Source of the DNA: an uncultured Clostridia bacterium
GTDB taxonomy: Bacteria; Bacillota; Clostridia; Christensenellales; Borkfalkiaceae
NCBI GenBank assembly: GCA_937888935.1
Contig: CALARO010000166.1
Coordinates: forward strand, 1-35,946
Direction of reading: 5' to 3'
DNA length: 35,946 bases
Both the position numbers and the translations under genes were made by a program. Position 1 is the stretch's first letter. Each line of letters starts with the position of its first letter. The notes beneath the pieces were generated by a model. That model did no database searches and had not been told where the DNA came from. It was given only the letters and a program-made list of their open reading frames with translations. Shown piece after piece: positions 3,288 through 33,684 of the stretch.

Positions 3288-3299
3288 AGGAGGAAGGTT

Positions 3300-4751: not shown

Positions 4752-4772
4752 TGCAGACGGGAGGGAACGAAT

Positions 4773-7145: not shown

Positions 7146-7227
7146 CAAAAAACAGAATAAACGATTTTTTGAATTAAAACGCCTAAGAAAATGCATAGAT
7201 AAAATTGATTTTCCAGGGATCAAACAC

Positions 7228-7256
7228 TTGCCAAATCGAAATTTATGTGATAAAAT
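7228..7256 (+). promoter_or_regulatory. Sigma-A type promoter with extended -10
   Basis: TTGCCA (7228-7233), 17-nt spacer, TG-a-TAAAAT (-10 at 7251-7256). Lies in an AT-rich 173-nt gap about 60 nt upstream of the ATG at 7319. Confidence 0.6.
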
Positions 7257-7318
7257 ACTGATTATTCAAAGCAATTTGAACGATTTTTCGAATACTTTCT
7301 ATTAAAGGAGAAAAGATC

Positions 7319-10300
7319 ATGAAGAAGAGAAAAGCATTATCGGCATTGCTTGTTGCGTTTGCGGCAACGTGCGTTTGCGCGGGATTTTCCGCGTGCAAGA
7401 AGGATAAGGGCTCTAACGATTCCGAGATTTACCGCGTTTATCAGTCATACGTGGCGTCGGCAGAAGCAAGCGGCGAAGAACCCTTATCGTATGAAGACTG
7501 GCTCGCTTCGATCAAGGGCGAGAAAGGCGACAAGGGCGATCCGGGTGAAATCGGAATCGGTATCGTATCTATCACGCTTGCCGAAGACAGAAAGTCTTAC
7601 ATAGTGAAATACAGCGACGGCTCGTCCGAAGCGATTCCCGTACCCGAAGCGTTGCCCGAACAGGAGCACGGTCACGTATGGGGCGATAAGATCGTACGGG
7701 TTGTAGAACCGTCGATTTCCGTCGGTTCGTCTGGCTCGATATCGAAAGTAGACGGCTTCGGCTACAAAGAATGTACCAAAGACGGTTGCGGCGCAAGAAA
7801 AATCGTTATTTTGAGAGATTTCTCGGGCAGTATGTCTTCGTCGGCGGTGTATCGCCTGAAGTTTATCGTAAGAGAGAAGGACGGCGTGCAGGTAGCGGAT
7901 GATATTTCGGCATCTTTGCCGAAAGGAGCGTATTCGTTTAAAATCAAATCGCTTGATGCAAACGTGCAGATTGCGGAGGGTGAAAACAATCCTGTCGGTT
8001 TGTTCGAACGTTCGGTGAGTTCCGACGAATCTGCGATATCTTTGAAATTCCAGCTTGATTGCGAAAAGGTTTCCAAAGCGGGCGTATACGAGTGCGATAT
8101 CGACGTGGAAATCGAATCGCTTGAAATCGGAGCGGAGAAAAACCCTGAACCTATCAGTGTAAACAGCTTGGTTCAGCGCGAAGCGGCGGCAGACGAATGG
8201 GTATATTTCCGCGTGGGGAGCAGTAGCGATTCCGATTCTTTGCCCAAGCACCCCGTATTGCATTTCGGCGACAACGTATCGGCAGAACTCGTAGGATATG
8301 TGGAACAGGTCGAAGACGAAAGCACCGGTAAGTATTTTAATTCGTATGTACCTTTCGAAGTGCCTGAAAAACTTGAAAGCGGCAAACCTGCGGAAAGTGC
8401 GTTCTCTTACAGCACTACTCAGATTATATATCGCGTGAAATCAAGCGACGGTAACATTGCGTTCAAATTAGCGCACGCGGCAGGCGAAGATTCTTCTTCT
8501 GCGGAAGTAATTCAGGTGAAATCTTCCGAAAGCGAAGAATCATATAAGGGCAAATCCGCAATCGGTGAAAAGTATTTCAGATTCACGGCGGCGAAGTCCG
8601 AAAAAGTGGTATTCTATCGTAAGGAAGTTGTCGCCGAAGGCTATGGCGGCGGTGCTCAAATCAGTTACGCCAATGCTTCGATTATCAAACCCGATGGCTC
8701 GATTGATGTCAGCGGCAAGTACACCGTATTCGAGGTAGTGGCAGGACAATCGTATATTATCGATATTTCTTCTATCCCCGAAGCCGACGGCTATGAATTC
8801 AAACTGTTCTCGCTCGGCGAAGACGAATCGGCTTACGAAGGCTATTCCGAAAGCTCGGCGATTGATATTTCCGATAAGTCTTCTTTTGAGATTTCCGACG
8901 GCGCGGGCAACAGATATTTCAAATATGTAGTACCGCAGAAAGGCAGATTCTCTTTGGACTTCGAAAACGAAGCGTTTATTGGCAGAATAGAGATTGCAAT
9001 CGGTGATGATTTGGCTTATTATTCATATCCCGATGAAAAATTTAAAGAGCAACTTTTGCCCGCTGGCACGGTTGTTAATATCGCGGTGAGCACGATTTCT
9101 TCGTCTTATAAGCTGAAAATCGATTATTATCAGCTTGCAGAAGTCGAAAACTCGATTCAGCTCGTCAATGCGGGCGGCAAAGCCTTGGCTTTGAAAGGCG
9201 TTACCGTGAAGCTGACGGATGACGACTCGAATGTTGTTCAGGGCGTAACCGATGAAAAAGGAATTGCAAAAATCTCATTTGTTCCCGGCAATTATTACGT
9301 TTCTTTGGACGGCTACGATAAAGAATCGTACGTTTATGAGAGTAGCAGTATCGAATTGCCCTCAGATTCCGCGATTTACGATAAAGGTGAAACCCCTTAC
9401 AAAGTAACGTTGGTTGAATATCTCAGCAAAACGTTCGTGGTAAAGAGCGGCGATCAGGTAATCTCGGGCGCTAAGGTAAAACTTATGCAAAGCGGCTCGG
9501 TAGTGAAGTCGGGTGATACGGGCGCAGACGGAAAGGTATTGATTGAAAAATTCCTCGACGGTAACTACGATATCGAAATCGAAGGACTTTCCGATTCTTA
9601 CATTTACCTCGGCTCGAAGCTTGAAATCGGCAACGATCAGTCCGAAATCGTGTTGCAAGTTTCCGATGCGGTAATTTACAGCATCAGCTTCGAGGGCGAA
9701 GATAAGCCGGGCGAAGGCGTTGTTGTAAAACTGATCGGCGCGGAAGACAAAGTATTCGGCTCAGGCGTAGTCGGCGCAGACGGTAAAGCAAGCGTAAAAT
9801 CGATTGCGGGCGTGTACTCTATCGAAGTGGAAGGCTTCATCGTAATCAGCGGCGAAACTTCTGAGAGCGAAACTTCGGCAGTTGCTTCCGTTCAGAAAAT
9901 CAAGAACGTTACGGCAGGCAGGACAAGCAAACCCGGTAAAGTAGAACTGGGGGCGTGCATTGTATCGAAAGGCTCAGGAAGCTCGTCTGCAAGATGCGTA
10001 TGCGTATATTTCGAAGCTCCGAAAGCCGGTATTTACAAATTCGTAGTTTCGGACAGCACGTTCCATTCGGGAATTTACTCGTACACGAGTAACGGTGCAT
10101 CTGCTTATACAGGAGAAATCGAAAAAGGAACTGATGCAAGCGGAAAAGTAATTTCGCTTCAAGTGAAGCTTTCCAAAGGCGAGTGCTTCGAATTTGGTTT
10201 CAATTCGTTGACGCTGAATTCGATTCTTGTGCAAGAAGTAGAGGAAGAGGAAAAGCCCGAGCCTGTCAAGAATTTGAAAGTCGGCGACAATTATGTAAAG

Positions 10301-10534
10301 ATTGATTTTAGTGGAAGTCAGTCGGTAATACTTACTGCTGATAAATCAGGTATTTACAAATTATCGTTTGTGGATTACGAACAAGGTTCGTTCTATTATT
10401 ATATCGATGATGAGTATAATGATGAAGCGGAAATTGTACTGTCGGCAGGCGAGTCGGTGGAGATATATCTGCAAACCACGAAACTGACAGAAGATTATTG
10501 CTACCTTAAAGTGGAATTCAGTTCCGTGGCATAA
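7319..10534 (+). CDS. Large surface lipoprotein with repeated beta-sandwich segments and three tandem prealbumin/CarboxypepD_reg-like domains
   Basis: AAAGGAG RBS. Lipobox CAGFSA|C. Short GEKGDKGDPGEIG stretch. Three tandem repeats of the pattern V.VKL.....V..G.T...G.A.....G.Y.IE (aa 611-845, nt 9149-9853). Recurring ..YF+F.......G.Y.L.F beta-sandwich-like motifs. Confidence 0.8.
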   Translation: MKKRKALSALLVAFAATCVCAGFSACKKDKGSNDSEIYRVYQSYVASAEASGEEPLSYEDWLASIKGEKGDKGDPGEIGIGIVSITLAEDRKSYIVKYSDGSSEAIPVPEALPEQEHGHVWGDKIVRVVEPSISVGSSGSISKVDGFGYKECTKDGCGARKIVILRDFSGSMSSSAVYRLKFIVREKDGVQVADDISASLPKGAYSFKIKSLDANVQIAEGENNPVGLFERSVSSDESAISLKFQLDCEKVSKAGVYECDIDVEIESLEIGAEKNPEPISVNSLVQREAAADEWVYFRVGSSSDSDSLPKHPVLHFGDNVSAELVGYVEQVEDESTGKYFNSYVPFEVPEKLESGKPAESAFSYSTTQIIYRVKSSDGNIAFKLAHAAGEDSSSAEVIQVKSSESEESYKGKSAIGEKYFRFTAAKSEKVVFYRKEVVAEGYGGGAQISYANASIIKPDGSIDVSGKYTVFEVVAGQSYIIDISSIPEADGYEFKLFSLGEDESAYEGYSESSAIDISDKSSFEISDGAGNRYFKYVVPQKGRFSLDFENEAFIGRIEIAIGDDLAYYSYPDEKFKEQLLPAGTVVNIAVSTISSSYKLKIDYYQLAEVENSIQLVNAGGKALALKGVTVKLTDDDSNVVQGVTDEKGIAKISFVPGNYYVSLDGYDKESYVYESSSIELPSDSAIYDKGETPYKVTLVEYLSKTFVVKSGDQVISGAKVKLMQSGSVVKSGDTGADGKVLIEKFLDGNYDIEIEGLSDSYIYLGSKLEIGNDQSEIVLQVSDAVIYSISFEGEDKPGEGVVVKLIGAEDKVFGSGVVGADGKASVKSIAGVYSIEVEGFIVISGETSESETSAVASVQKIKNVTAGRTSKPGKVELGACIVSKGSGSSSARCVCVYFEAPKAGIYKFVVSDSTFHSGIYSYTSNGASAYTGEIEKGTDASGKVISLQVKLSKGECFEFGFNSLTLNSILVQEVEEEEKPEPVKNLKVGDNYVKIDFSGSQSVILTADKSGIYKLSFVDYEQGSFYYYIDDEYNDEAEIVLSAGESVEIYLQTTKLTEDYCYLKVEFSSVA

Positions 10535-11898: not shown

Positions 11899-14800
11899 AT
11901 GAGAAGAAGAGCAAAATATTTTCTGCTTGTAGTACTCTCACTCATATTTACGGTGTGTTCGTGCCTTGCAATCGCGGGTTGCAAGAGAAAGAACGAAACT
12001 TACGGCAGCGAAGAAACCATTGCGCCCCCTGCGGGCGATTCGGTAGTAGAACGCCGCGTCACCGTGCTTACGCCCGACGGCGATCCGCTCGGCAGGGTGG
12101 AAGTGCAGTTATTTCTTGCAGACGAAAGCGAGGCATATTGCGGCGCGAAGACGGGATCGGACGGCGTTGCGATTTTGCGCGCGGGCGAAGGGCTTGACTT
12201 TTTGATCGAGATTGTTAATCCGCCGGAAGGCTACGAGTATTCGCAGCGGGTGGAACTCAACTCTTCGGACGAAAGCAAAACGGTGTATTTAAGCATAGCC
12301 GGAGCGGGCGAATTGAGTTATTCCGTCACGGTGAAATCGGAAGGCGGCTTGCTGATGGATAATATATCCGTGGTGCTGCACGACGGCGATACCGCGATTT
12401 CTTCGGGCGTAACGAATAAAACGGGCGAAGTCTCGCTTCGCGTAGCCGCGAGAAGAGAATATACGATCACGCTTGCGGGCGTACCCGAAGGTTACACCCC
12501 GGTGGGCGAATTGAAAACTTCCGCCGAAAAGGATCAGACGATCGTTCTGAAATCGGCGGTTATGCCGGCTTCTTCGATTCCGAGCAGCAAGTTGTACGCG
12601 ATGGAAGACATTATGTACGATTTCACGGTGATCACGTCGGACGGCGACTCGTTTACGCTTTCGGAAGCGTTGAAAACGAAGAAATTGGTGCTGATCAATT
12701 TCTGGGCGTCGTGGTGCGGACCTTGCCGCGGCGAATTCGACGATATGGAACGCGTGTACGACGAGTATAAAGAAGACGTGGCGATTATCGCGCTTTCCAC
12801 CGACGACGACATCAATGCCGTAAAGAAATACAAAGACGCATATAAATTCAAAGACGATGAAAACGATCCAAATGCGGAAGAACGCGGACTTACGTTCGGC
12901 ATGGCGCCCGATTCGGTGGGGTTGTATTCGAGATTTTCGAGATATTCCGGCGGATCTATTCCCGTCAACGTGTTTATCGATCGTTACGGCAGAATCAGCG
13001 ACATTGGCAAAGGCGGACTTTCCGAAAGCGTATTCCGCACGGAATTTGCGAAATACACCGCCGCCGACTACGTGCAAAAGAAGTATACGGGGGCGGATGA
13101 CGCGCCTGTGGTAGAGCCGGACAAACCGGACGTGGAAATGCCTTCTTCCGAAGCGATTTCGAATGCGGTGAATAGTGCGAATTTCGAGGCTACCTACACA
13201 GGCCCTTCAAATGAGATAACGTGGCCGTGGATCATCGGTTCGGACAACGAAAGTATTGTTCCCGGTAATTTGGGACATCACAATACAACGGCAACGATTC
13301 GCGCAAAATTCAGTATGCAGCCGGGGCAGTTTCTTGCATTTGATTATCGGCTGAATACCGAAGATATCGACGGCGCAGACTATTTGTACGTGTACGTTGG
13401 CGAAGGCGACGGCACCGTAGGCGAAACGCAACTCGATGCGCTCACCCGGGTTTCGAAAAACTGGGTAACGAAGTACGTGTATACGCCGCTTGTGGCAGGC
13501 GATTATACGCTGCGTCTTTCGTACGTAAAAGATCATAGCGATTCCAATCTGAAAGGACAGGAAGTTGTGGCAATCCGCGATCTTCGCGTGGTAACGGAAG
13601 CGGAAATCAAAGAGAAGAATGCTTCCGTAAATATCCTTCGTGACGCTTCTTCCGATTTTGAGCAACCCGCGCAGCAGACAGGCAGCATATCTTACTGGAA
13701 GAAACACGTGGAAGTCGCACTCGGTGACGACGGCTATTATCACGTAGGAAGCAAAACGGGTCCGTATCTTCTTGCAAATCTGACGGGCGGAACGCATTAC
13801 ACCAACGCTTCCGTGGCGGCTTTGATTTCGGCAGGGTATTTCAAGCGTGCCGGACTCGAACAAGTCGAGGCGTATTTTGTGGGTGGCACAAGAGATAGTG
13901 CAAGCTATGTGGAAGACGGTAAAGGGTATGTCTGGCTTGCGGACGCGAGTGCCGTTCAGGGATATACGCTTGTAGACGAAACGTTGAAGAGCCTGTTGAA
14001 TCAGGTGGCGCAGAACTTCTATACGACGAAGAATTTCGACGGGAATGGAACGCTCAGCAAATATTATACGAAAGATACATGGCTTGAATTTTGTTCATAC
14101 TTCGATCACTACGGCGCAGGTAAATCGATAGAAAACCCGTTACTCGGACTTTGTAATAGTGCGGCGATCGAGGCTTCGCTGGATGACGGCAAGAAAACAA
14201 AACCCAACCACGTAGTCATTGATCAGTCGCTTATTCCTCGCGGAAAAGTGTATAAATTTGACTGCACGAAGACGGGTGCGTATAGAGTTTATTCCGATAT
14301 TTCGTCTACTATGCTTTCTCAGACGGGCGGCTATATAGATATCTCGGGCAGCGGCGCTAACAGAGGCGATGACGCGATGGGCAATTATAACGTGTACGTC
14401 ACATTCAGGGAAGGTAATAGCTATTATATCTCAACGGCATTCAGTTTGCCGCAGGATTTCGGCGAATTTGATTTTTATATCGAATATCTCAATACTTCTT
14501 ACGATGAGTTTACCTACGCATCCGATGGCTCGTATTTCTATTCGTATAATCCGGACGGCTCTTTGAATATTGATATTTCCCGCAATCACGGCGTTCATGC
14601 GGAACTTGGCACCGACGGATATTATCATCAGGTACTTTCGGGCAATATTCTGGATAGCGGAGAACATTCCTATTTCTGGGTAGATTTGCGTAACAGCACG
14701 AATTTGTTCGGAAGTTATACGCTCGAAGACATGGCTCGCGGTTACTATATGAACGGTAATCAAAAAGTGACTGTCGTTGTTGATAAAACGGGGCGGAAAT

Positions 14801-15030
14801 TCTTCGATCTTACGAGTTTTGGCGATAAAGATTATAGTGACGATATTCTCGCTTATGCGGCTCAGACTGAAACGGAGGGCGAGCGGGCAGGTATGATTAA
14901 AGCAAGTAAAGAACTTGTAGAGATTGTTTCGAAGGCTCTTGCCCATATAGAACACGATTCAAAAGATTCTTGGTTCGGCGTGGCGTATTACTACTCACAC
15001 ATCGGCGAATATTCGCCGCAGAAGGCATAA
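11899..15030 (+). CDS. Multidomain lipoprotein: 2x prealbumin-like domain, TlpA/redoxin-type thioredoxin fold (WCGPC), jelly-roll-like region, 2x DGYYH...W-x4-YY module
   Basis: AAGGAG RBS. Lipobox LAIAG|C. Thioredoxin signature KKLVLINFWASWCGPCRGEF, with Cys codons at 12715-12717 and 12724-12726. PEGY-terminated prealbumin-like repeats at about 12052-12243 and 12316-12507. Confidence 0.85.
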   Translation: MRRRAKYFLLVVLSLIFTVCSCLAIAGCKRKNETYGSEETIAPPAGDSVVERRVTVLTPDGDPLGRVEVQLFLADESEAYCGAKTGSDGVAILRAGEGLDFLIEIVNPPEGYEYSQRVELNSSDESKTVYLSIAGAGELSYSVTVKSEGGLLMDNISVVLHDGDTAISSGVTNKTGEVSLRVAARREYTITLAGVPEGYTPVGELKTSAEKDQTIVLKSAVMPASSIPSSKLYAMEDIMYDFTVITSDGDSFTLSEALKTKKLVLINFWASWCGPCRGEFDDMERVYDEYKEDVAIIALSTDDDINAVKKYKDAYKFKDDENDPNAEERGLTFGMAPDSVGLYSRFSRYSGGSIPVNVFIDRYGRISDIGKGGLSESVFRTEFAKYTAADYVQKKYTGADDAPVVEPDKPDVEMPSSEAISNAVNSANFEATYTGPSNEITWPWIIGSDNESIVPGNLGHHNTTATIRAKFSMQPGQFLAFDYRLNTEDIDGADYLYVYVGEGDGTVGETQLDALTRVSKNWVTKYVYTPLVAGDYTLRLSYVKDHSDSNLKGQEVVAIRDLRVVTEAEIKEKNASVNILRDASSDFEQPAQQTGSISYWKKHVEVALGDDGYYHVGSKTGPYLLANLTGGTHYTNASVAALISAGYFKRAGLEQVEAYFVGGTRDSASYVEDGKGYVWLADASAVQGYTLVDETLKSLLNQVAQNFYTTKNFDGNGTLSKYYTKDTWLEFCSYFDHYGAGKSIENPLLGLCNSAAIEASLDDGKKTKPNHVVIDQSLIPRGKVYKFDCTKTGAYRVYSDISSTMLSQTGGYIDISGSGANRGDDAMGNYNVYVTFREGNSYYISTAFSLPQDFGEFDFYIEYLNTSYDEFTYASDGSYFYSYNPDGSLNIDISRNHGVHAELGTDGYYHQVLSGNILDSGEHSYFWVDLRNSTNLFGSYTLEDMARGYYMNGNQKVTVVVDKTGRKFFDLTSFGDKDYSDDILAYAAQTETEGERAGMIKASKELVEIVSKALAHIEHDSKDSWFGVAYYYSHIGEYSPQKA

Positions 15031-15102: not shown

Positions 15103-15510
15103 ATGAAAAAAATAACGAAAATTCTTGCAACGATACTTACGGCGGCGTTGCTTTGCGGCGGCGCGGCTACCATGGCTTCCTGTTCGCGAAAGAACGACGA
15201 TCCCGCCGCAAACGAACAGGTCGATTATTCGCAGATCAAAGCTTATAAAGTGAAAGTGGTTGATCCGGACGGCAAACCCGTTGCGGGCGTAAGAGTGCAG
15301 ATCTGCAAAGGCGAGGATTGCATGCAACCTATCGCAACGGGTGCGGACGGCGTGGCTGTGCTTGAATATAAAGGCGCGGCGTACCCCGAAGCTATTTACG
15401 AAATTCATTTGCAGAATGTACCCGATGGGTATACTTTCGATAATACGAAATATAAAACTCCCGCAACTTACGGCGACATTATCGAAGTGAAGTTGGATAA
15501 AGCCGCATAA
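15103..15510 (+). CDS. Small lipoprotein consisting of one prealbumin/CarboxypepD_reg-like domain
   Basis: AAGAGGTGA RBS. Lipobox ATMAS|C. YKVKVVDPDGKPVAGVRVQICKGEDC...ADGVAVLEY....YEIHLQNVPDGYTF matches the repeats in the neighbouring large lipoproteins. Confidence 0.8.
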   Translation: MKKITKILATILTAALLCGGAATMASCSRKNDDPAANEQVDYSQIKAYKVKVVDPDGKPVAGVRVQICKGEDCMQPIATGADGVAVLEYKGAAYPEAIYEIHLQNVPDGYTFDNTKYKTPATYGDIIEVKLDKAA

Positions 15511-15527
15511 ATTTCATTAAAACCAAA

Positions 15528-15558
15528 AGCAGGCAACCGTTCGGCTGCCTGCTTTTTC
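15528..15558. terminator. Bidirectional rho-independent terminator between convergent operons
   Basis: AGCAGGCAACCG / CGGCTGCCTGCT stem with one mismatch. Flanked by AAAA on the 5' side and TTTTT on the 3' side, so it presents a U-tract on both strands. Confidence 0.75.
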
Positions 15559-15641: not shown

Positions 15642-16214
15642 TCAAATCAGTTTTTCGATTTCCGTCTGCAATTCCGTAAGGGTGATGCTGCCCTGCTTGA
15701 TAAAGCGGATAATGCCGTCGCCGTCGGCGATCCCCGTCATGGGGTACGACCCCGCCCCGCCGAGACTGTCGTACAGGTGAAAGCTTTCGGTGTCCTGCGC
15801 GAAAGAAATCACGTAATCGGGGAATTTATCTTCGAGAAACGCCTGCTTATCCACGTCGGTATCCGCCGAATAAGAGTGCAGCGCCACGATTTTCACTTTC
15901 TCGCCGTATTCGCTCTGTACCGCGTTGAAGTCGGGCAATTCTTTCAGGCACGGACCGCAGGTGGTGTACCAGAAATTCAGGATCATCACCTTGCCTTTCG
16001 CGCTTTTCGGCGTAAACACGCCGCCTTCGGGATCGGCTTTCGTGCGATACAAAACGGCGTCGAATTGCGGACACGCGTCGCCCGTGCCGTACACGGAAAT
16101 TTCCTGTTCTTTCTTGCAGGCGTTGAAATACACAAGCGTTCCGATCAGCAAGATTGCCGCCAACGCCCAGGCCGTCACTTCCGCCCAGAAAGAAGCCTTC
16201 ATTCGCTTTTGCAT
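15642..16214 (-). CDS. Membrane-anchored TlpA/ResA-type thiol-disulfide oxidoreductase (thioredoxin fold, CGPC)
   Basis: ATG at 16214, 7 nt after the GGAGG at 16226-16222. The TTG at 16220 in the ORF track was rejected. N-terminal TM anchor WALAAILLIGTLVYF. KVMILNFWYTTCGPCLKELP with the CxxC at 15948-15959. The start is 2 nt after the upstream stop. Confidence 0.85.
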   Translation of the reverse strand: MQKRMKASFWAEVTAWALAAILLIGTLVYFNACKKEQEISVYGTGDACPQFDAVLYRTKADPEGGVFTPKSAKGKVMILNFWYTTCGPCLKELPDFNAVQSEYGEKVKIVALHSYSADTDVDKQAFLEDKFPDYVISFAQDTESFHLYDSLGGAGSYPMTGIADGDGIIRFIKQGSITLTELQTEIEKLI

Positions 16215-16216
16215 AC

Positions 16217-17317
16217 TCAATCCTCCTTGTTCCCCGTAATGTCGTTCGGCTTTACAGCCGGCTGTACGGCGTTTTGCGAAACGTTTTTAGAAGCGTTTTG
16301 CGCCATGCCCCGCAGATCCACGCGCTCGGCGGGAACGGGCGCGGCAATCGCGGCGGCGTTTTCTTCCGTCACGTTCTCGCGCACGAAAATTTTCGAACCT
16401 TTCCATGAAATCGCCTTCGCGGGGCAGACCTTCATGCACGCGCCGCAATGAATACATTCGTGATCGCCCACATGCCGGATATCCATCTTGCACACGGCTT
16501 TGCATAAACCGCAGTCGGTGCATTTGGTTTTATCGAGCTTCACGCCGAGCATCGCCACGCGGCAGAAAAACCCGTAAATCGCGCCCAGGGGGCAGAAAAA
16601 CCGACAGAAAAACCGGAAAATAAATACGCTCAGCACGATAAACGCGATCAGCAGCAGAAATTTCCAGGTGAAAAGTCCGCCGAGCATGCCGTACATGTCG
16701 GCGTTTTTTTCGTTGGAAATCAGTCCGATGCCGCCGAGCAGCGTGCCGGAAGGGCAAATGTACTTGCAAAACGCCGGAACGCCCGTCTGATACATCACAG
16801 GGATGGAAATCACGAGAACTACCAGAAGCACGTATTTGAAATACGAAAATACGCGCGTTACTTTGCTTTTCTTCACTTTCGGCGTCTTGATTTTATACAG
16901 AAGCTCTTGTCCTAACCCGATGGGGCAGAGAAAGCCGCAGATCGTTCTGCCGAGCAGCAGTCCGAAAAGAATAATGATGCCGAAAATATACGCGGGGGTA
17001 CGCGTTTTTGAAGAAGCGAGCGCATTTTGCAGCGATCCGAGCGGACACGCCCCGATCGCGCCGGGGCAGGAATAGCAGTTAAGACCGGGCGCGCAAAGGT
17101 ATTTGCTGTTTCCCGTGTAGATTTTCCCCGAAGTAAAGCCTTTCAGGTTGGCGTTGAAAAGCAGCGCGGAATACAGCTGAATGATTCTGCGCTTCGAAGG
17201 CAGATGGTTTTTAATCCACCGCCCCGTTTTCACCGCGGCGGTTTTCACCCCCCGACCCGTCGCCGCGAAGGCTTTTTTAATTTTAGCGAAAAAATTCGTT
17301 TTTTCAGTAGATTTCAT
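16217..17317 (-). CDS. NapH/MauN-like integral membrane polyferredoxin (4Fe-4S binding protein with CX3CP motifs)
   Basis: Three CX3CP motifs at helix ends (CGFLCP, CKYICP, CRFFCP) plus CYSCPGAIGACP. C-terminal two-cluster ferredoxin signature CTDCGLCKAVC...CIHCGACMKVCP (nt 16421-16522). Four or more hydrophobic helices. Confidence 0.8.
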   Translation of the reverse strand: MKSTEKTNFFAKIKKAFAATGRGVKTAAVKTGRWIKNHLPSKRRIIQLYSALLFNANLKGFTSGKIYTGNSKYLCAPGLNCYSCPGAIGACPLGSLQNALASSKTRTPAYIFGIIILFGLLLGRTICGFLCPIGLGQELLYKIKTPKVKKSKVTRVFSYFKYVLLVVLVISIPVMYQTGVPAFCKYICPSGTLLGGIGLISNEKNADMYGMLGGLFTWKFLLLIAFIVLSVFIFRFFCRFFCPLGAIYGFFCRVAMLGVKLDKTKCTDCGLCKAVCKMDIRHVGDHECIHCGACMKVCPAKAISWKGSKIFVRENVTEENAAAIAAPVPAERVDLRGMAQNASKNVSQNAVQPAVKPNDITGNKED

Positions 17318-17348
17318 AATGTTTTCCCGTAATCGCTTTATATCGTAA

Positions 17349-18167
17349 TCAACCCAAGCCGATACATTCCGTGCAGATATTGATGGCTTTTTCCAGCATT
17401 TCTTTCGCGCCGCCGTTGTTCGCGCCGATGATCATAAACGCTATGCCGCACGCGAGCAGCACGCCGCGCACAATGTAAAGCGTACGCTTGTCCTTTTCCG
17501 ATTTATCCGCCGAAGCGTTCGATGCGCCTGAAACGCCCGCCGCGCCGGAAACGCCGCGATTTTCCGCAAGCAGTTTTTTGATCTCCGTCGTTTCTTTTTC
17601 CGCGAACCGCTCGGTGAATATCGTGGCGAACGCCGCCGCGGCGAACGCAATCACGATCCACGGCAGAATACGGGGAAGCATTCCGATCATATCGCGCGTG
17701 GGGTTAAATCCGTCGCCTACGGGGGTGTAATATTTTTTATTCCACACCACAAGCGCTACGAGCGCGGCGCAGATCGCGCAGCAACCGACGCACACGCCCC
17801 ACACGATTTTTTCGGCGCGCTTCGCTTTCCGTAAAACTTCGCTGCCATGCGCAAGATTTTCGGGAACGCGTTTTTGCAGCCGCTTCAATATTTCCGAACG
17901 ATCGAACCGCGCGCGCGGTTTTTCGGTCGGCGCAGGGAAGATTTCGAAAATCACCCATCCGGCAACCACCGCCGCAATCCACAAAAAGAGAAACGCGGCG
18001 ATTTCGGAAAGCGCGTTTTTCGCCTTTTCGTAAGAATAGGGGGTGATTTCCGCCGATCGGTAAATGCGCTGCGATTGCACGATCAGCAGAACGCCCGCGA
18101 TCACGGTGAGAACGCTTAAAACGATTCCCGTAACGCGCCGAAGCGTAATTTGATGTTTTTCCGTCAT
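17349..18167 (-). CDS. Five-TM membrane protein with a Cys-rich third helix and a C-terminal CxxC tail (...KAINICTECIGLG)
   Basis: ATG at 18167 with GGAGG 5 nt upstream. The ORF-track start at 18224 lies upstream of the -10 box, so it is not transcribed. Five hydrophobic helices. VCVGCCAIC lies in helix 3 (17769-17792). CTEC at 17364-17375, 4 residues from the stop. Confidence 0.75.
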   Translation of the reverse strand: MTEKHQITLRRVTGIVLSVLTVIAGVLLIVQSQRIYRSAEITPYSYEKAKNALSEIAAFLFLWIAAVVAGWVIFEIFPAPTEKPRARFDRSEILKRLQKRVPENLAHGSEVLRKAKRAEKIVWGVCVGCCAICAALVALVVWNKKYYTPVGDGFNPTRDMIGMLPRILPWIVIAFAAAAFATIFTERFAEKETTEIKKLLAENRGVSGAAGVSGASNASADKSEKDKRTLYIVRGVLLACGIAFMIIGANNGGAKEMLEKAINICTECIGLG

Positions 18168-18212
18168 ACCTACCTCCGAAACAAGCGTAAAAATCGCTTG
18201 AAAATCTTTTAT

Positions 18213-18241
18213 ATTATAATACAAAAAAGCGTTGCCGTCAA
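18213..18241 (-). promoter_or_regulatory. Sigma-A promoter of the minus-strand redox operon
   Basis: On the minus strand: TTGACG (18241-18236), 17-nt spacer, TATAAT (18218-18213). Confidence 0.7.
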
Positions 18242-18301: not shown

Positions 18302-18330
18302 TTGACAAAATCGTTAACTCGTGGTAAAAT
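18302..18330 (+). promoter_or_regulatory. Sigma-A promoter with extended -10
   Basis: TTGACA (18302-18307), 17-nt spacer, TG-g-TAAAAT (-10 at 18325-18330). Confidence 0.75.
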
Positions 18331-18392
18331 ATACGTATTCTCTGAACTTTTCAGCGGCTTTCACCGATTATATCCGAGAGGTTTCTACCATA

Positions 18393-19715
18393 ATGAATGT
18401 GCAATTTACAGAAAATCAAGCGCAAAACCCGATTTCACAACAAAAATATCGTAAATTTTACGCCGTACTCGAAGAAGAATTGCTTCCCGCAATGGGTTGC
18501 ACCGAGCCGATCGCCGTAGCGTATGCGGCCGCGCTTGCCCGCGACGCGCTCGGCGCGTACCCCGAAGGGGCGGAAATTTCCGTCAGCGGCAACATTTTAA
18601 AAAACGTAAAAAGCGTGGTAGTGCCGAATACGGGCGGACTGCGCGGCGTGGCGGCGGCCGTCGCCGCAGGGATTGCCGCAGGCAACGCGGCGCGCAAACT
18701 CGAAGTGCTTTCGGAAATCACGGCGGACGACGTGAAAAAAATCGAACGCTGCTTAAACGAGTGCCGTTTCACCGTCGCGCAGTCGCGCTCGGGTTGCGTG
18801 TTCGATATCGGCGTGCGGCTGTTTTGCGGCGAAAACGAATCCTTTGTGCGGATCGAAGGGAGGCACACCAATGTGGTGGCAATCGAGAAAAACGGTAAAA
18901 GCGTGCGGGACGTCGGCGAAAACGGGCGCGAAACGGGCGAAGAAACGTTTTCCGACCGCAGTTTTTTAACGGTGGAAAGTATCTACGAATTTGCGCAGGC
19001 GGCGGGCGTATCGCGTTTAGAGCCGCTCGTGGGCAGGCAGATCGACTATAACACGAAAATCGCGGAAGAAGGTTTAAAAAACGAATACGGCGCGTGCGTG
19101 GGCAGGGTGCTGTTAAGCTCGTTCGGCAGCGGCGTGCATAATCTTGCGAGAGCCACGGCGGCGGCGGGATCGGACGCGCGCATGAACGGCTGCGGCTTGC
19201 CCGTGGTGATCGTTTCGGGCAGCGGCAATCAGGGCATGGCGGCGTCGCTTCCCGTGGCGGTGTACGCAAAAGAGCTGGGCGCGTCAAGGGAAAAAACGCT
19301 GCGCGCCGTCGCGTTGTCCGATCTGATCACCGTGCATCTGAAAACGGGCATCGGCAGGCTTTCCGCCTATTGCGGCGCGGTGAGCGCGGGGTGCGGCGCG
19401 GGCGCGGGGGTGTGCTATCTCTGCGGCGGCGGCGCGAAAGAAATTTCCGAAACGCTTTCCAACGCGCTCGCCATTGATTCTGGCATCATCTGCGACGGCG
19501 CGAAATCGAGTTGCGCAGCGAAAATCGCTTCGGCGGTGGACGCGGGTTTGCTCGGCATGGAGATGAGCCGGCGCGGCAAAAAATTCATGGGCGGCGACGG
19601 CATACTGGAAAGAAACGTGGAAACCACGATCCGAAACGTGGGCGACATCGCGCGCGTCGGCATGCGCGAAACCGACGAAGAAATCATTCGCCTGATGATC
19701 AAAAGCTGCAATTAA
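18393..19715 (+). CDS. UPF0597 / serine-dehydratase-alpha-like family protein (L-cysteine desulfidase family, YhaM/CyuA-like)
   Basis: ATG at 18393, downstream of the promoter; the GTG at 18321 in the ORF track lies inside the promoter spacer. LLPAMGCTEPIAVAYAAALA N-terminal signature. GSGNQGMAASLPV. Gly/Ala/Cys-rich C-terminal half (ICDGAKSSCAAKIA). Length about 440 aa. Confidence 0.7.
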   Translation: MNVQFTENQAQNPISQQKYRKFYAVLEEELLPAMGCTEPIAVAYAAALARDALGAYPEGAEISVSGNILKNVKSVVVPNTGGLRGVAAAVAAGIAAGNAARKLEVLSEITADDVKKIERCLNECRFTVAQSRSGCVFDIGVRLFCGENESFVRIEGRHTNVVAIEKNGKSVRDVGENGRETGEETFSDRSFLTVESIYEFAQAAGVSRLEPLVGRQIDYNTKIAEEGLKNEYGACVGRVLLSSFGSGVHNLARATAAAGSDARMNGCGLPVVIVSGSGNQGMAASLPVAVYAKELGASREKTLRAVALSDLITVHLKTGIGRLSAYCGAVSAGCGAGAGVCYLCGGGAKEISETLSNALAIDSGIICDGAKSSCAAKIASAVDAGLLGMEMSRRGKKFMGGDGILERNVETTIRNVGDIARVGMRETDEEIIRLMIKSCN

Positions 19716-20080: not shown

Positions 20081-20255
20081 ACAACGCTGTAAGAATTTAA
20101 TTTGGCGCAGTATACCGTGCTTTTCCTGAAAGGAAAGAAAAGAAAGACGGCGGCGCAGAATCACGTTCTTCTCCGTCGCGCCGGAAAGCGCGCGGGCGTA
20201 TGCAAATATTCAAAAGATTGTTTTGACCGGTTTTGCCGTTCAAAGGAGGTACAGC

Positions 20256-23200
20256 TTGAAAAGTACTTTAAAGAGAATATTCTCTCTTGCCCTGATCGCA
20301 GCGTTTTCAACGTCGCTTGCGATCGGCGATCGCAATTTCAAAGCGTCGGGCGATAACGGCGCGTTGTTTTCCGACGTCACGGGCGAGATGGATCTCACGG
20401 ATATAGCCGTGAAAAATTTGAATTCTTCCGTTCTCGCGGGCGGCAAAACTTACGAAACGCGCACGGTGATCGTCAGTCTCGAAGGCGATACGCTCGTAAA
20501 GCAGGCGAACGGCGCGGACGTTTCTTCTTACGCTTCGTCGAAAGAAGGTAAGCGCGCGCAGAAAGCTTTGAAAAAATCGCAGGACGCCTTTCTGAAAAAA
20601 CTTTCGAAAAGCGGCATTTCCTATTCGCTCGAAAATCGCTATTCGGCGGTGGAAAACGCCGTGGCGATCAAAGTCAATACAAAATACGTAGCCGACATTA
20701 AAGCGATGAGCGGCGTTTCGGGCGTGTACGTATCCGAAACGTACGCCGCTCCCGAAACCGTGAGCGAAACGTATTCTTACGAAGCTACGGCAAGCGGCGA
20801 AGTCCACGCCACGATCAATAACACCAGCGTATATCCCACGGGCGTATACGATTCTTCTTCCGTACTCGGAATGTCGGGCATCACCAGCGATAACTCGGTT
20901 GTGGCGATCATTGATACGGGCCTTGACTACACGCATAAAGCGTTTCAGATCTATGCGGATAAATATCCGATGAATAACGCCCGTTTCGACGAAACTTACG
21001 TAGCGGATAAACTTTCCGAAAAAGATCTGATCGCCGAGCAGAGAGCGGCAACGCAGGGCGAAAAACTCGCGGCGAAAGATCTGTATATTTCCAGAAAAGT
21101 ACCTTTCGCCTACGACTATGCCGATAACGACGCCGACGTATATCCTTCCTATTCCAACCACGGCACGCACGTGGCGGGCATCGTGGCGGGGTACAGTCCC
21201 GACGGATACACGGATAAAGACGGCAACAAGATCAACGAGCCGTTCGTGGGCGTTGCGCCCGAAGCGCAGCTTGTGATCTGTAAAGTATTTTCCGACAATA
21301 TCGACGACGCCGACGTAGGCGGCGCGGATACGGAAGATATTCTTGCCGCGCTCGAAGACTGCGTGATGCTCGGCGTAGACGTGATCAATATGTCTCTCGG
21401 TACGTCCTGCGGTTTTTCCACGGTATCGGACGAAGCCGACGAAGAAGGCATGCTGCTCGAACGAGTGTATTCGAGCGTAAGAAACGCGGGTATTTCTCTC
21501 GTGTGCGCGGGCAGCAATGATTACAGCGCAGGTTACGGCGGCAATTTCGGCACGAATCTCGCATCCAACCCCGATTCCGGCACGGTGGGTTCGCCTTCCG
21601 TGTATCCCGCCGCGCTTTCCGTGGCGAGTATCAGCGGACAGCGTTCGCCCTACATGCTTGCGAATGAAAATTCGGAAGCATTTTCGGTGTACTATGAAGA
21701 ATCCAGCGATCAGAACAATAAATACTTCGATTTCGCAAAACTCATGCTTGGCGATAAGCAGAGCGAAACGTTCGAATACGTGGTAGTGCCGGGCGTAGGC
21801 CGCGTAACCGACTATGCTTCGGTAAGAAATCTTTTCAAAGCCACGGATGCAAACGGCAACAAACGTATTGCGCTTGTAAAGCGCGGCGACACTTCGTTTA
21901 AAGACAAGGTGGACACTGCGAAGAGCATGGGCGCGGCGGCAATCATCGTTTACAACAACGTAGCCGGCACGATCAGAATGTCGCTCGGCGACGCGGAAGA
22001 TCCCATTCCTTCCGCATCCGTTTCGAAAACCGCGGGCGAACGGCTTGTGCAGACGGCTACCGGCAGAATCGGCACGCTGAAAATCGATAAATCGCTGCTT
22101 GCCGGTCCGTTCATGAGCGATTTCTCGTCCTGGGGCGTTACGCCCGATCTTCGCCTGAAACCGGAAATCACGGCGCACGGCGGCGAAATCACGTCGGCAG
22201 TCCCCGGCGGTTACGGCGAGATGTCCGGCACTTCGATGGCTTCGCCGAACATGGCGGGCGTCGTTTCCATTATCAGAAGTTATCTTAAAACGAAAGACCC
22301 CGCGTATATCGCCGATACCAACGCGCTCACGCAGCGTGTAAATCAGCTGATTATGAGTACGGCGACGATCGTATACGATCGCGACGGCTTGCCGTATTCG
22401 CCGCGCAAGCAGGGCGCAGGACTTGGCAGTCTCGAAAACGCGGTGAAATCGAACGCGTATCTTTCTACAAACGATACGACAATCGATCTTCGCCCCAACG
22501 TAAATCTCGGCGACGATCCCGATAAGAGCGGCGTGTACGAATTTACGTTCAACGTAAGCAATTTCGGCTCGTCGGCACTCGAATTTACGTTCAAATCCAC
22601 GTTCATGACGGAAACGCGCGACGAATTTTCCGTGGCGGAACAAGCGCACCTTCTCGGCGGCTCTCCCGAATGGAACGTGCTGAGCGGGAACGCGACGAAA
22701 TCGGGCGATAAGCTCGCGATTCCGGCGGGCGGAACGGCGGAAATCAAAGTGAAGCTCACGCTTTCCGCCGAAGAAAAGAAGTATATCGACGACAATTTCG
22801 TAAACGGCATGTACGTGGAAGGCTTCATTTCGCTGCTCGGCGAAGGCGAACAATGCGATCTTACGCTGCCTTTCATGGGCTTCTACGGCGATTGGGCAGC
22901 CGCCCCGATGCTCGATTATAACGCCTATGAAATCGACGCGTCTTTGGCGGACGCTTCGGTGGACGACGCGAACAAACTCAAAGCCAGCGTGTGGGCAACG
23001 CAGCCGTACACGATGTATTATAACGAGCAGTATTCGATGCCTATGGGTACGTTCGCGTATCTGCAGGACGAAAATGCCGACAGAGTGTACACAGTAGAAG
23101 AACACAACGCGATTTCGTGCTTCAACGATTACTACGGCGAAGGCAACGGCAACAACTATCTCACCGCATGGCAATTCCGCGGCTTGTACGTAGGGTTGCT

Positions 23201-26200
23201 TCGCGGCGCGCGCACCGTGAAATACACGCTGAGAAACGTTGATACGGGCGAAATTATCTATAAAAACACGGCGTACCGTATCGGAAAAGCGTATACGGGC
23301 GGCGGCGGATCGGGCAGACCCGCGTTTGTGAAATTCGAATTGAATCCGCTCGAATACGGACTTGTTTCCAACGGCAGATACGCCATGGATTTCTATTTCG
23401 AATCGGACAGCGCGATCGGAAGCGAAAATACGAACACGGCTTCGTACTCGTTCACGTTCACGGCGGACTACGAAGCACCCGTATTGCAGGACGTTCGCGT
23501 GAGATACTACGATTATAAAGACGGCAATAAAGATAAGCAGCAGATTTATCTCGATCTCGACGTGTACGATAATCACTACGCGCAATCCGCACTGCTTTGC
23601 TATTATGCGGACGGCGAACTGAAACAGGTAAACGACTACGTTCAGCCGATTTACAACAGCGTGAAGAACGGCACGAACACCGTTTCGATCGACATCACGG
23701 ACATCTACGCGAAATATAAAGACCAGCTGTACGTTCAGCTCGACGACTACGCGCTCAATCACAGCGTGTACGCGCTCAATCTTTCGGCGAACAATTCGAA
23801 GAACGTTCCCGATTCGTTCGAGCTTGCGCCCGGCGAAAATTCGCTGTCTTTGAAAATTTACGAAACGCATAAGGCGTTGCTCAGCTACGAAGGCGGCGCG
23901 AATTATTCCAACTTCTCGTGGTCTTCGGCAAACAGAAACGTTGCCGACGTGAAAAACGGCGAAATCGTGGGCTTAAGCGAAGGCAGCACGAAAATCACCG
24001 TATCCAACGGGAAGGTATACAGAACGATCGACGTAACCGTCAGCGGCGAAAAGGCTCGCCTGAGCGTGCCTTCGCTTTCGTTCGGTACGATCCGCAATAA
24101 AGACGATAATCTCGTTACGGCTTCCGGCTACGTGGAAGTATATCCCGATCAGGACATCACTCTCACGGTGCAGACAGATCCGTGGTACTATCCGGAAGAA
24201 AATATCCGTCTCAGATGGGAAGCGGGCAACACCGCCGTGTGCGAAGTGGATCAGAACGGTAAGCTGAATTTCAAAAAGAAAGGCACTTCCAGCGTGATCG
24301 CCACGCTGCTCGACGAAAGCGGCAATCCCACGGCGTATTCCGCCACCGTCACGGTGCGCGTTCTCGATCCGTTCGTCGTATCGAATTATACGCTCACGCA
24401 CTATCGTGGCAAGGACAAAACGGTAGAAATCCCCACCGATAAAAACATTATGTATATCGGCGAAGACGCGTTTGAAGATAATTCCACGATGGAAGAAGTC
24501 ATTCTTCCCAAAACGGTGGTGAACATCAATCAGCGCGCGTTCAACAACTGCACCGCGCTCAAACGCATCTATGCGGTGAGCAAAGAAAAGCAGGAAATCG
24601 CCGATTCCGATCTCAACCTTGTGTACACCGAAGCGTTTATCGGCTGCACTTCGCTTGAAACGATCGATCTTTCCAACGTGAAAGTGATCACGCTCGGCAG
24701 GCGCGCGTTCTACGGCTGCACAAGCCTGAAAGAAATTATCAATATGCAGGCGATCGGCACGGCGTTCGACGGCGCGTTCGAAGGCTGCGTATCTCTTACC
24801 GGAATCGACCTTAGCGGTATGCACGTGGCGGGGCAGGACGTATTTAAAGACTGCGTTGCGCTCGCCGCCGTACAAACGGATAAATACTCCGCGATCGGCA
24901 AGGGTATGTTCAGAAACTGCACGTCGCTTAAATCAATCGTGCTGAAAAATTCTTCGATCGGCGACAACTCGTTCGAAAATTGCTCTGCGCTTACGAAAGT
25001 AACGATCGACGGCAACGGCGACGATTATGTGATCGGCTCGGAAGCGTTCTTAAACAGCGGCTTATCCGAAATCACGATCGTCGCAAGAGTGCGTAAAATC
25101 GGCGACCGCGCGTTTGCGAATACGTCAATTTCCGAAATCACGTTGCCCGAAGGACTTACGGAAATCGGCGAAAATATCTTCGCCGGCTGCACAAAACTCG
25201 ATACGATCACGTTGCCGGCTTCTTTCTCTCTGAAAGACGTGAAACTCGCGGGCAATCTGTTCAACGGCCGCACGGTAAAATTTGCGGCAAGCTCGCAGTT
25301 TAAAAACGACGGCGGCGTTCTGTACAGCGCAGACGGAAAAATTCTCTACGCCGTGCTTGACGGCAGCGTGAATTCGGTTACGATTCCCGCCGGCGTGGAA
25401 GAAATTTACGATTATGCGTTCGAGAGCGGTAACGTCGGCTCGATCACGATTCCCGCTTCGGTGAAGAGAATCGGCAAGGGCGCGTTCAGAAACTCGAAGC
25501 TTTCCGCAATCTCGTTTGCGGAAGGCTCGCAGATTGCGGCGATCGAAGACGAAACCTTCTACGGCAGCCGACTTCTGGCAATTCAGTTGCCATCGTCGGT
25601 AACGTCGATCGGCTCTTACGCGTTTTCCGAAACGCTTCTTAAAAACATCGAGCTTGGCGAAAGCGTGAAATCAATCGGCTCGTATGCTTTCCAGCTTTGC
25701 GAATGGCTTGCGTCCGCAACCATTCCCGCAAGCGTGGAAGAAATCGGCAATTATGCGTTCCGCAACTGCGTCGCGTTGAAGAATATCGAAATTCCCGCCG
25801 TCAAACGAATGGGAATAGGCGTATTCGTAAGCAATGCGGCTTTGAAGAGCGCGAAATTCGGCGCGGAAGCGGAAACCACGGGTACTTCCACGTTCGTTGA
25901 TTGTTCCGAATTGGAAGAAGTTACAATCGGCGGTAAAACGTCGGAAATCGGCGCTTCCGCGTTCGATACCCGCGTAGGCTACTATGGCGCTCGTAATAGC
26001 GCGCTGAAAAAAGTCACGCTCGGCGAAAGCGTGAAATCGATCGGCAACGCCGCGTTCTACGGCTGCTCGTCGCTCAATGAAATCGATCTTTCCCACGTGG
26101 AAACGATCGGCGCGATGGCTTTCTATAATTGCGGCGCGTTGCGCACGCTCGAGCTGAACGAAGCGATTTCGATCGGCGAAGGCGCGTTTGCCGTGGATAA

Positions 26201-31418: not shown

Positions 31419-31461
31419 TTAAAAACTTTTCTTACAAATACGCCTCAAAAAGGTAGACAAG

Positions 31462-32541: not shown

Positions 32542-32557
32542 GCGGGAGGTTTCAACG

Positions 32558-33679: not shown

Positions 33680-33684
33680 GAAGA

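Follow-up and report, generated by a model that had tools for sequence, protein, structure and literature searches.

How could an extracytoplasmic thioredoxin be supplied with reducing equivalents from within its own operon when no DsbD- or CcdA-like protein is evident beside it? This question is raised by three adjacent genes, designated here g1, g2, and g3, on the minus strand of contig CALARO010000166.1 of an uncultured Clostridia bacterium; "the window" refers to the whole stretch of DNA analyzed, 35.9 kb in length. The genes encode a membrane protein with a C-terminal CxxC tail (g1), a NapH-like iron–sulfur (Fe-S) membrane protein (g2), and a membrane-anchored thioredoxin (g3). To our knowledge, every textbook route by which reducing power reaches the bacterial envelope runs through DsbD-family transporters fed by cytoplasmic thioredoxin. 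No Pfam match to the DsbD/CcdA family (PF02683) was found among the products of g1–g3 or the large open reading frames (ORFs) of the window that were scanned. When E. coli DsbD served as the phmmer query for 6478 ORFs taken from the window and from 87 related loci, a weak single-query test, no match was obtained at E ≤ 10. The analysis described below indicates that the three gene products are linked in function and that the module probably represents a means, not described before, of bringing reducing power across the membrane.

Organization of the Operon

The three genes were tightly packed, with gaps, read from the sequence, of 31 nucleotides (nt) between g1 and g2 and 2 nt between g2 and g3, and a single promoter-like site was present upstream of g1 (Table 1), all as the first-pass annotation of this DNA had described. 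The ribosome-binding site of g3, which it had placed inside the preceding gene, was found in the 3' end of g2. The protein motifs that it had listed, namely the NICTECIGLG-type end of g1, the CX3CP motifs and Fe-S signatures of g2, and the transmembrane (TM) anchor and CGPC site of g3, were all confirmed. Its bidirectional terminator was recovered in part: a terminator-like hairpin with A and T tracts was found between the end of the operon and the convergent gene (15103–15510); only its minus-strand orientation was picked up in the scan, and bidirectionality is plausible from the sequence.

Conservation of the Gene Set across Genomes

One genome per GTDB species was scanned, and relatives of g2 were found in at least 599 genomes. 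The counts given for this first clade refer to the best 80 of these at least 599 species loci, all of which belong to metagenome-assembled genomes (MAGs) of gut or rumen Clostridia. The ORF directly upstream of g2 ended in C-x-x-C-[IV]-G-[LMV]-G-stop in all 80 loci, with the exact ICTECIGLG in 62. A thioredoxin domain was fused to g2 in 70 loci and was encoded by the next gene, overlapping by 4–20 nt, in nine others; the split g2/g3 found in the window is the minority form. All three parts were together in 79 of the 80 loci, the exception (L042) being cut by the contig end. The co-location of the three parts is far beyond chance. Flanking genes were poorly conserved, most neighbors from the window being matched in 0–17 of the 80 loci, and g1 dropped to ~25% identity across these loci while g2 held 52–70%. 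Because the flanks vary and g1 diverges while g2 stays similar, the linkage is maintained by selection and is not inherited synteny.

The fusions had exactly one TM helix between the Fe-S domain and the thioredoxin domain, so that one of these domains must be inside the membrane and the other outside; the low-complexity stretch at the C-terminus of g2 is the counterpart of the linker in these fusions. Several fusions were large (700–840 aa in L011:5992–8238, L017, L019, L057, and L069), and in L011 at least, two tandem thioredoxin-like domains were located beyond the linker TM helix.

A second clade, about 50% identical, was reached by a tblastn search of plasmid records, which led to a megaplasmid of the cultured Peptoclostridium acidaminophilum DSM 3953. 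A 45-aa "CD1871A family CXXC motif-containing protein" ending in ...KKAINICLECIGIG is annotated in this record. Its gene is overlapped by 8 nt by that of a 280-aa "4Fe-4S binding protein", which is 50% identical to g2 and has all 18 of its motif Cys residues. A gene for a "TlpA disulfide reductase family" lipoprotein is located 1.5 kb upstream of the pair. A metagenome scan with the P. acidaminophilum protein added 47 loci (48 in total), of which 44 contained a tail gene of 45–57 aa. Among the 21 loci with at least 3 kb of flank on each side, 20 had the tail, and 19 had a thioredoxin-like gene within 6 kb. The gene order varied: the thioredoxin gene was upstream, or downstream and overlapping, or g2 was followed by the tail ~1.3 kb and the thioredoxin ~2.4 kb downstream. 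The thioredoxin partners in this clade had lipoprotein signal peptides.

The first-pass annotation had proposed that the three products act together and had expected them to stay syntenic in other genomes. Synteny was indeed kept throughout the first clade save for the truncated locus, and with fusion or adjacency there, a tail gene in both clades, and a TGA in place of the first tail Cys in two independent contigs (see below), functional linkage of the three products in one unit is strongly supported.

The CxxC-Tail Protein

Five hydrophobic segments were predicted in the product of g1, the C-terminus of which reads ...KAINICTECIGLG. Residues 236–272 matched positions 2–38 of the 38-position NCBIfam profile NF040920 (CD1871A family) with 39.2 bits, the cutoff being 32; no family was found for g1 in Pfam. 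In alignments of 22 and 87 homologues, conservation was confined to the last TM helix and the NGG..DVL.KAINICTECIGLG tail, and invariant residues occurred solely within the last ~15 positions. The four N-terminal helices were fast-evolving, with identity down to 25% and no conserved Cys. A search of 1.84 billion proteins with the tail profile yielded 2701 representatives of clusters at 50% identity, falling into length classes of ~48–100, 120–160, and 250–300 aa, and in 150 of the 150 top matches the profile match ended at the last residue of the protein. A word-index search with the 45-aa tail gave no match; the exhaustive profile search did find relatives.

Since only the last TM helix and the tail are conserved and the profile matches are always C-terminal, the functional core of g1 is, on these alignments, a single-TM mini-protein with a C-terminal CxxC, and the 272-aa form is a lineage-specific extension. 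The g1 product, first described as a five-TM protein, thus does not represent a new five-TM family. The C-terminal 37 residues place g1 above the curated cutoff of the CD1871A family; with its additional, poorly conserved 4-TM N-terminal part, g1 (272 aa, five TM segments) departs from the small size expected of this family (~40–60 aa, a single TM helix). A literature search found no function and no paper for the CD1871A family, and matches for "CD1871" concerned unrelated genes or a conjugative-transposon region.

The AlphaFold2 (AF2) model of g1, with a predicted local distance difference test score (pLDDT) of 85, was almost entirely alpha-helical, with six long and two short helices. A Foldseek search of the PDB with this model gave nothing significant (best E 0.35, TM-score ~0.2). 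Because no significant PDB fold match was obtained, a DsbB-, VKOR-, or CcdA-like nature of the modeled N-terminal 4-TM bundle appears to be ruled out. A role of the tail as a C-terminal sorting signal was also rejected, as the order of basic residues, TM helix, and terminal motif is the reverse of that in sortase-type signals.

A Probable Selenocysteine Variant of the Tail

In some relatives, an in-frame TGA replaced the first Cys of the CxxC: ...KKAISI-TGA-LECIGLG-TAA was found in L098, to which L099 is identical, and in L100, which has a different sequence. The two independent contigs kept the invariant peptide in the seven codons after the TGA and differed there by a single synonymous change (GAA/GAG). 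A hairpin, GCUUA-GGU-UAAGC (5 bp with a GGU loop), was located 13 nt after the TGA and was not found in 25 sequences of the Cys type. No other in-frame TGA occurred in ~1200 codons of the neighboring ORFs, and all Trp codons there were TGG, which makes an alternative genetic code unlikely. No Rfam family was found in the window, and no family of selenocysteine insertion sequence (SECIS) elements was found at the TGA variants.

The sequence features expected of a bacterial selenoprotein, i.e., UGA at a Cys position, a frame kept after it, and a downstream hairpin, were thus found in L098 and L100. The TGA most likely encodes selenocysteine (Sec), and these tails look like an unannotated selenoprotein variant of the family. 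Sec/Cys pairs mark catalytic redox cysteines. Because a probable Sec replaces the first Cys of the tail in homologues, this Cys would be a catalytic redox residue, which argues for thiol(selenol)–disulfide exchange by the tail CxxC and against a purely structural or metal-binding role. The role of intermediate or partner that the first-pass annotation suggested for the CxxC-tail protein agrees with this TGA, with the location of the tail next to g2 in both clades, and with the fusion or adjacency of g2 and the thioredoxin. A thiamine pyrophosphate (TPP) riboswitch (RF00059, 74 bits) was also found in L098 (4016–4122, minus strand), ~1.5 kb downstream of the module; it is probably unrelated.

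The NapH-Like Iron–Sulfur Protein

Three CX3CP motifs (C127/C131, C184/C188, and C238/C242) and two C-terminal CxxCxxCxxxC(P) [4Fe-4S] motifs were found in g2. A further invariant motif, C75-x5-C81-x2-C84-P-x6-C91-P, had been overlooked in the first-pass annotation. All 18 motif Cys were invariant in 82 of 82 homologues; the non-motif C252 varied. Pfam matches were obtained to Fer4_5 (three stretches) and Fer4, with a weak one to Fer4_18. The protein scored below the NapH/MauN cutoffs (TIGR02163, 72.9 vs. 213.05 bits; NF007013, 55.7 vs. 234 bits) and was 27% identical to E. coli NapH, with which it shares 12 Cys: C127/C131, C238/C242, and the eight cluster Cys. Six Cys have no counterpart in E. 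coli NapH: the loop that follows TM1 contains C75, C81, C84, and C91, and the one that follows TM3 contains C184/C188, the third CX3CP. Relatives of g2 formed more than 6700 clusters at 90% identity (E ≤ 1e-10), many with a C-terminal thioredoxin domain.

Hydropathy analysis gave three strong TM segments and a weak one (TM1). The 110 residues that precede TM2 contained 18 Lys and Arg, the majority of them close to the N-terminus, and the 26-residue TM2–TM3 loop contained seven; these counts fit the positive-inside rule for an N-in, four-helix, NapH-like topology. Because the Fe-S domain would be cytoplasmic and the K/R-rich N-terminus and TM2–TM3 loop inside, the Cys-rich loops of g2 are predicted to be outside, where the tail CxxC and the thioredoxin would also lie. 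The g1 tail and g3 are placed there because basic residues precede the last TM helix of g1 and the anchor of g3 is N-in. The SKRRIIQ stretch before the weakly hydrophobic TM1 raised the idea that a cofactor-loaded loop is exported via Tat; this was rejected, as the RR is not conserved and the homologues have KRK, KRT, or KRN.

With the NapH, MauN, NosR, and RdhC (PceC) proteins, g2 shares the four-TM core, CX3CP motifs after TM2 (C127/C131 in the NapH alignment) and TM4 (C238/C242), at their cytoplasmic ends, and two C-terminal, cytoplasmic [4Fe-4S] motifs. It differs from them in the six additional invariant Cys of the putatively outward loops, which include the third CX3CP, and in being paired with an obligate CxxC-tail partner and a fused or adjacent thioredoxin. 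No napG, napA, NapC, mau, nos, or rdh partner genes accompanied g2 in the window. The closest concept described is that of Meheust et al. 2021 (PMC8238504), in which the external mediator of NapH-like systems is an ApbE-flavinylated FMN-binding domain. Both there and here, a NapH-like Fe-S protein serves as a modular wire to a fused or adjacent extracytosolic mediator; the mediator here would be a thioredoxin domain together with a C(U)xxC tail protein. In that study, thioredoxin-like mediators form a class apart from the flavinylated ones, and DsbD is the sole system with which thioredoxins are connected (PMC8238504). No flavin mononucleotide (FMN)-binding domain was found in g1–g3 and no ApbE gene in the window.

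The Thioredoxin

One N-terminal TM segment and the active site WYTTCGPC were found in g3. Redoxin and AhpC-TSA of Pfam were matched above cutoff (~40 bits each), as was SCO1-SenC (25 bits; cutoff 22.8). The NCBIfam scores were below the cutoffs for ResA (55.6/170), TlpA (39.3/230), StoA (33.9/210), and DsbE (31.1/123). The best sequence relatives of the domain in the PDB were ResA, Etrx1/2, StoA, TlpA, and CcmG, which are reductases dependent on CcdA/DsbD. The W-C-x-x-C (C86/C89), E92, and the cis-Pro of P158-x-T160 were conserved in g3; together with the thioredoxin fold and the membrane anchor (lipoprotein partners in the second clade), these are the features of TlpA/ResA-type proteins. Active sites in the homologues were mostly CGPC or CTPC. 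Compared to ResA, TlpA, StoA, and Etrx, g3 lacks a cytochrome c maturation, sporulation, or Msr context, and its counterparts are usually fused to a NapH-like protein.

In the anchor of g3, L23 and N31 were conserved in 76 of 85 sequences, which suggests specific packing of the predicted helix against partners. A third Cys, C48 in G-x-x-C-P-D-F, was present in 54 of the 85 and is possibly an extra redox or resolving cysteine (residues 23, 31, and 48 correspond to window positions ~16146, 16122, and 16071).

The SCO1-SenC match bears on an explanation by metal handling, in which g2 would be a counterpart of the cupric reductase CcoG, which is related to NapH, or of a ferric reductase, and the tail and a Sco/TlpA-like protein would bind or deliver Cu or Fe at the surface. 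The weak Fer4_18 match of g2 points in the same direction, CxxC tails are classic metal-binding motifs, and TlpA acts with Sco and CoxB in copper-center assembly. We consider this explanation highly improbable. The SCO1-SenC match is weaker than those to Redoxin and AhpC-TSA, and g3 has CxxC rather than the CxxxC...H of Sco. The window and the annotated recurrent neighbors of the related loci yielded neither an oxidase nor a copper transporter nor a FixG_C domain, and UxxC variants such as those of the tail are typical of thiol–disulfide catalysis, not of metal delivery.

Proposed Mechanism

We lean towards the view that the three gene products form a single membrane device through which reducing equivalents travel from the cytoplasm to an extracytoplasmic thioredoxin. 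The two cytoplasmic [4Fe-4S] clusters on the NapH core of g2 would be reduced, presumably by ferredoxin or a similar low-potential donor, and electrons would pass through the two CX3CP motifs that g2 shares with NapH, at the inner boundary of the membrane, and then to the six family-specific Cys in the outward loops of g2. From there, a dithiol/disulfide (or selenenylsulfide) relay would proceed through the C(U)xxC at the C-terminus of g1, held at the outer face by its single TM helix. It would end at the CxxC of the TlpA/ResA-like thioredoxin, be it g3 or the domain fused to g2, which would reduce surface proteins. In this scheme, we infer on which side the loops lie, which way the electrons flow, and by what chemistry they cross the membrane, as well as the donor and the clients. 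Active sites of the CGPC/CTPC type are reducing, and electron transfer from ferredoxin to a disulfide is downhill.

The flow could also be the reverse: the module would then be a DsbB/VKOR-like oxidase of anaerobes, with the surface thioredoxin-fold protein oxidizing exported proteins and electrons leaving via the tail and g2 to the Fe-S clusters or to a quinone. The succession of a 4-TM module, a linker TM helix, and a thioredoxin in the fusions mirrors bacterial VKOR–thioredoxin fusions, and the C-x4-C pair of a recurrent neighboring lipoprotein domain (see below) could be a structural disulfide. Low-potential clusters of the ferredoxin type are, by established thermodynamics, poor acceptors of electrons from a dithiol, and the CGPC/CTPC sites occur with a ResA/TlpA-type Glu and cis-Pro and are not DsbA-like (CPHC). 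NapH is regarded as interacting with quinol (PMC5928378, PMC8238504), which would suit an oxidase, but no quinone-related partner was encoded nearby. As the nearest solved thioredoxin relatives are reductases as well, we regard the oxidase reading as clearly unlikely.

Several points weigh against the proposed route to the thioredoxin. The role of CX3CP, as a disulfide or as a cluster ligand, is unsettled even in NapH, NosR, and RdhC (PMC5928378), and the electron step across the bilayer is the least understood part of the proposal. The sidedness of the g2 loops rests on hydropathy, charge bias, and homology to NapH, and the hydrophobicity of TM1 is low. For g2, an AF2 model built from 21 close homologues had a pLDDT of 50.5 and gave no structural support; sequence and profile searches of the PDB matched ferredoxin and thioredoxin domains only and no NapH-type membrane domain. 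No conserved donor gene adjoined the module. In the second clade, three loci (L106, L122, and L133) had no adjacent tail gene, two well-flanked loci had no thioredoxin gene within 6 kb, and in P. acidaminophilum a gene for a major facilitator superfamily (MFS) transporter separates tlpA from the mini-protein/Fe-S pair.

Comparison with Known Reductase Systems

The job proposed for the module, keeping extracytoplasmic thioredoxins of the TlpA/ResA/CcmG type reduced, is that of DsbD, CcdA, and ScsB, which have the same type of thioredoxin partner. In DsbD and ScsB, moreover, the membrane module is fused to a thioredoxin-fold domain, as in the g2 fusions (PMC3322552). Unlike these proteins, to which it has no sequence relationship, g2 would receive electrons through two Fe-S clusters of the ferredoxin type and not through a Cys pair accessible to thioredoxin, and the proposed module depends on an additional small subunit with a CxxC.

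Ferredoxin:thioredoxin reductase and heterodisulfide reductase provide examples of one-electron Fe-S carriers reducing a two-electron disulfide, thioredoxin being the product of the former. Both are soluble or cytoplasm-facing and contain CPC...CPC...CHC motifs or CCG domains, unlike the module, and no homology to either was detected.

A full-text literature search (NapH-like/CX3CP with thioredoxin, DsbD/CcdA-independent routes, PF12801, TlpA with 4Fe-4S) found no paper describing the module. In a 2026 review of disulfide maintenance systems, "ferredoxin" is absent and iron–sulfur is mentioned only with glutaredoxins. There is a substantial chance that the module, in which a wire of the NapH type has a thioredoxin as its output and a CxxC subunit of its own, forms a separate class among the transmembrane disulfide reductases. 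The fuller claim is put forward tentatively, at a likelihood a little short of even: that this is a third mechanistically distinct class besides DsbD/CcdA/ScsB and unrelated to DsbB/VKOR, a ferredoxin-driven Fe-S "wire" with an outer Cys cluster and a C(U)xxC mini-subunit, and that it is the main route powering extracytoplasmic thioredoxins in many strictly anaerobic gut Clostridia.

Neighboring Genes

Table 1. Positions of the operon, its expression signals, neighboring genes in the window, and the TGA-bearing tail genes of related loci (locus given before the colon).
Feature	Position	Strand	Remarks
Promoter-like site, TTGACG-17-TATAAT	18213–18241	−	Upstream of g1; sigma-70-like, 11/12 consensus matches; putative function
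g1	17349–18167	−	272 aa; ATG at 18167; GGAGG upstream at 18177–18173; CTEC codons of the tail at 17364–17375
CD1871A-family domain of g1	17352–17462	−	NCBIfam NF040920; residues 236–272 (last TM helix and NGG...KAINICTECIGLG-COOH)
g2	16217–17317	−	366 aa; stop codon 16217–16219
Shine–Dalgarno sequence of g3, AAGGAGG	16222–16228	−	Inside g2, at its 3' end; taken directly from the sequence
g3	15642–16214	−	190 aa; ATG 16212–16214; CGPC codons at 15948–15959
Intrinsic-terminator-like hairpin	15525–15556	−	14 pairs; A tract and T tract on opposite sides; terminator scan
135-aa lipoprotein	15103–15510	+	DUF7382/CarboxypepD_reg-like beta-sandwich; C68-x4-C73 pair; convergent with the operon
1043-aa lipoprotein	11899–15030	+	Internal thioredoxin domain, WCGPC, residues ~237–371; convergent with the operon
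SDH_alpha-domain gene	18321–19715	+	Serine dehydratase alpha chain family; no NCBIfam match; divergent from the operon
Promoter-like site of the SDH_alpha-domain gene, TTGACA-17-TAAAAT	18302–18330
2455-aa surface protein	20223–27590	+	Subtilase S8, PA, Fn3-like, Big_2, many BspA-type leucine-rich repeats (LRRs)
Opp-type peptide ATP-binding cassette (ABC) transporter genes	28878–34989		After the giant S8/LRR gene
TGA-bearing mini-gene, L098 (identical L099)	L098:1428–1583 (L099:5779–5934)		Low-GC (26–29%) Clostridia-like contig
TGA-bearing mini-gene, L100	L100:1497–1631		Low-GC (26–29%) Clostridia-like contig

Two lipoprotein genes converge with the operon (Table 1). The DUF7382/CarboxypepD_reg-like domain of the 135-aa lipoprotein recurred just downstream of the module in 32 of the 80 loci, often in large proteins with thioredoxin domains, and its C-x4-C pair was kept in 27 of 40 domain copies of other loci besides that of the window. 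This lipoprotein is a candidate client or partner of the module. The 1043-aa lipoprotein, whose ~650 C-terminal residues matched no family, had homologues covering at least 50% of it in 17 of the 80 loci, and a large thioredoxin protein on the opposite strand occurred near the module in 16; the 1043-aa lipoprotein is a candidate downstream acceptor.

On the other side, the gene with an SDH_alpha domain was arranged divergently, with its own promoter-like site, in the window, and this arrangement was found in eight of the 80 loci. The SDH_alpha family presumably includes the E. coli cysteine desulfidase CyuA/YhaM. Homologues of the 2455-aa S8/LRR protein were encoded near the module in 16 of the 80 loci.

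Such neighbors would suit a respiratory-type extracellular reductase. Flow would be the same as in the route preferred here, and its purpose would lie in discharging fermentative electrons onto acceptors outside the cell (disulfides, cystine, or polysulfide), or in unfolding disulfide-rich proteins for the products of the neighboring protease and peptide-uptake genes, rather than in maintaining envelope proteins. The surface-protein neighbors do recur (the S8 peptidase–LRR giant in 16 loci, Opp-type ABC transporters in 4–11, and large thioredoxin lipoproteins in 16–17), as does the divergent SDH_alpha-family gene, and NapH-like modules are used modularly with extracytosolic reductases (PMC8238504). 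These associations are, however, partial (10–40% of loci) and confined to close relatives, and no energy-coupling component was evident. The present data do not separate this explanation from envelope maintenance; we regard it as rather unlikely.

A further block of the window (504–10534) encodes uncharacterized, probably surface-associated proteins. A 927-aa protein with a VWA domain was followed by ORFs of 483 and 790 aa without a Pfam family (504–7145, plus strand), and a 1071-aa protein (7319–10534) had only a weak CarboxypepD_reg match.

Biological Significance

If the proposed route is correct, it would tie the thiol redox state of the envelope directly to the low-potential ferredoxin pool of fermenting anaerobes. 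A function would thereby be assigned to the g2 relatives (more than 6700 clusters at 90% identity) that are annotated as "4Fe-4S binding protein", to the orphan CD1871A mini-protein family with its 2701 clusters, and to the CX3CP motifs of NapH, NosR, and RdhC proteins, for which an explanation has long been lacking. As P. acidaminophilum DSM 3953 is a cultured carrier, the hypothesis can be put to a direct test.

Among Clostridia of the human and animal gut, the module is abundant. Because it often adjoins surface proteases, peptide transporters, and thioredoxin-domain lipoproteins, it may bear on the tolerance of these bacteria to oxidative stress or on their breakdown of disulfide-rich host and dietary proteins.

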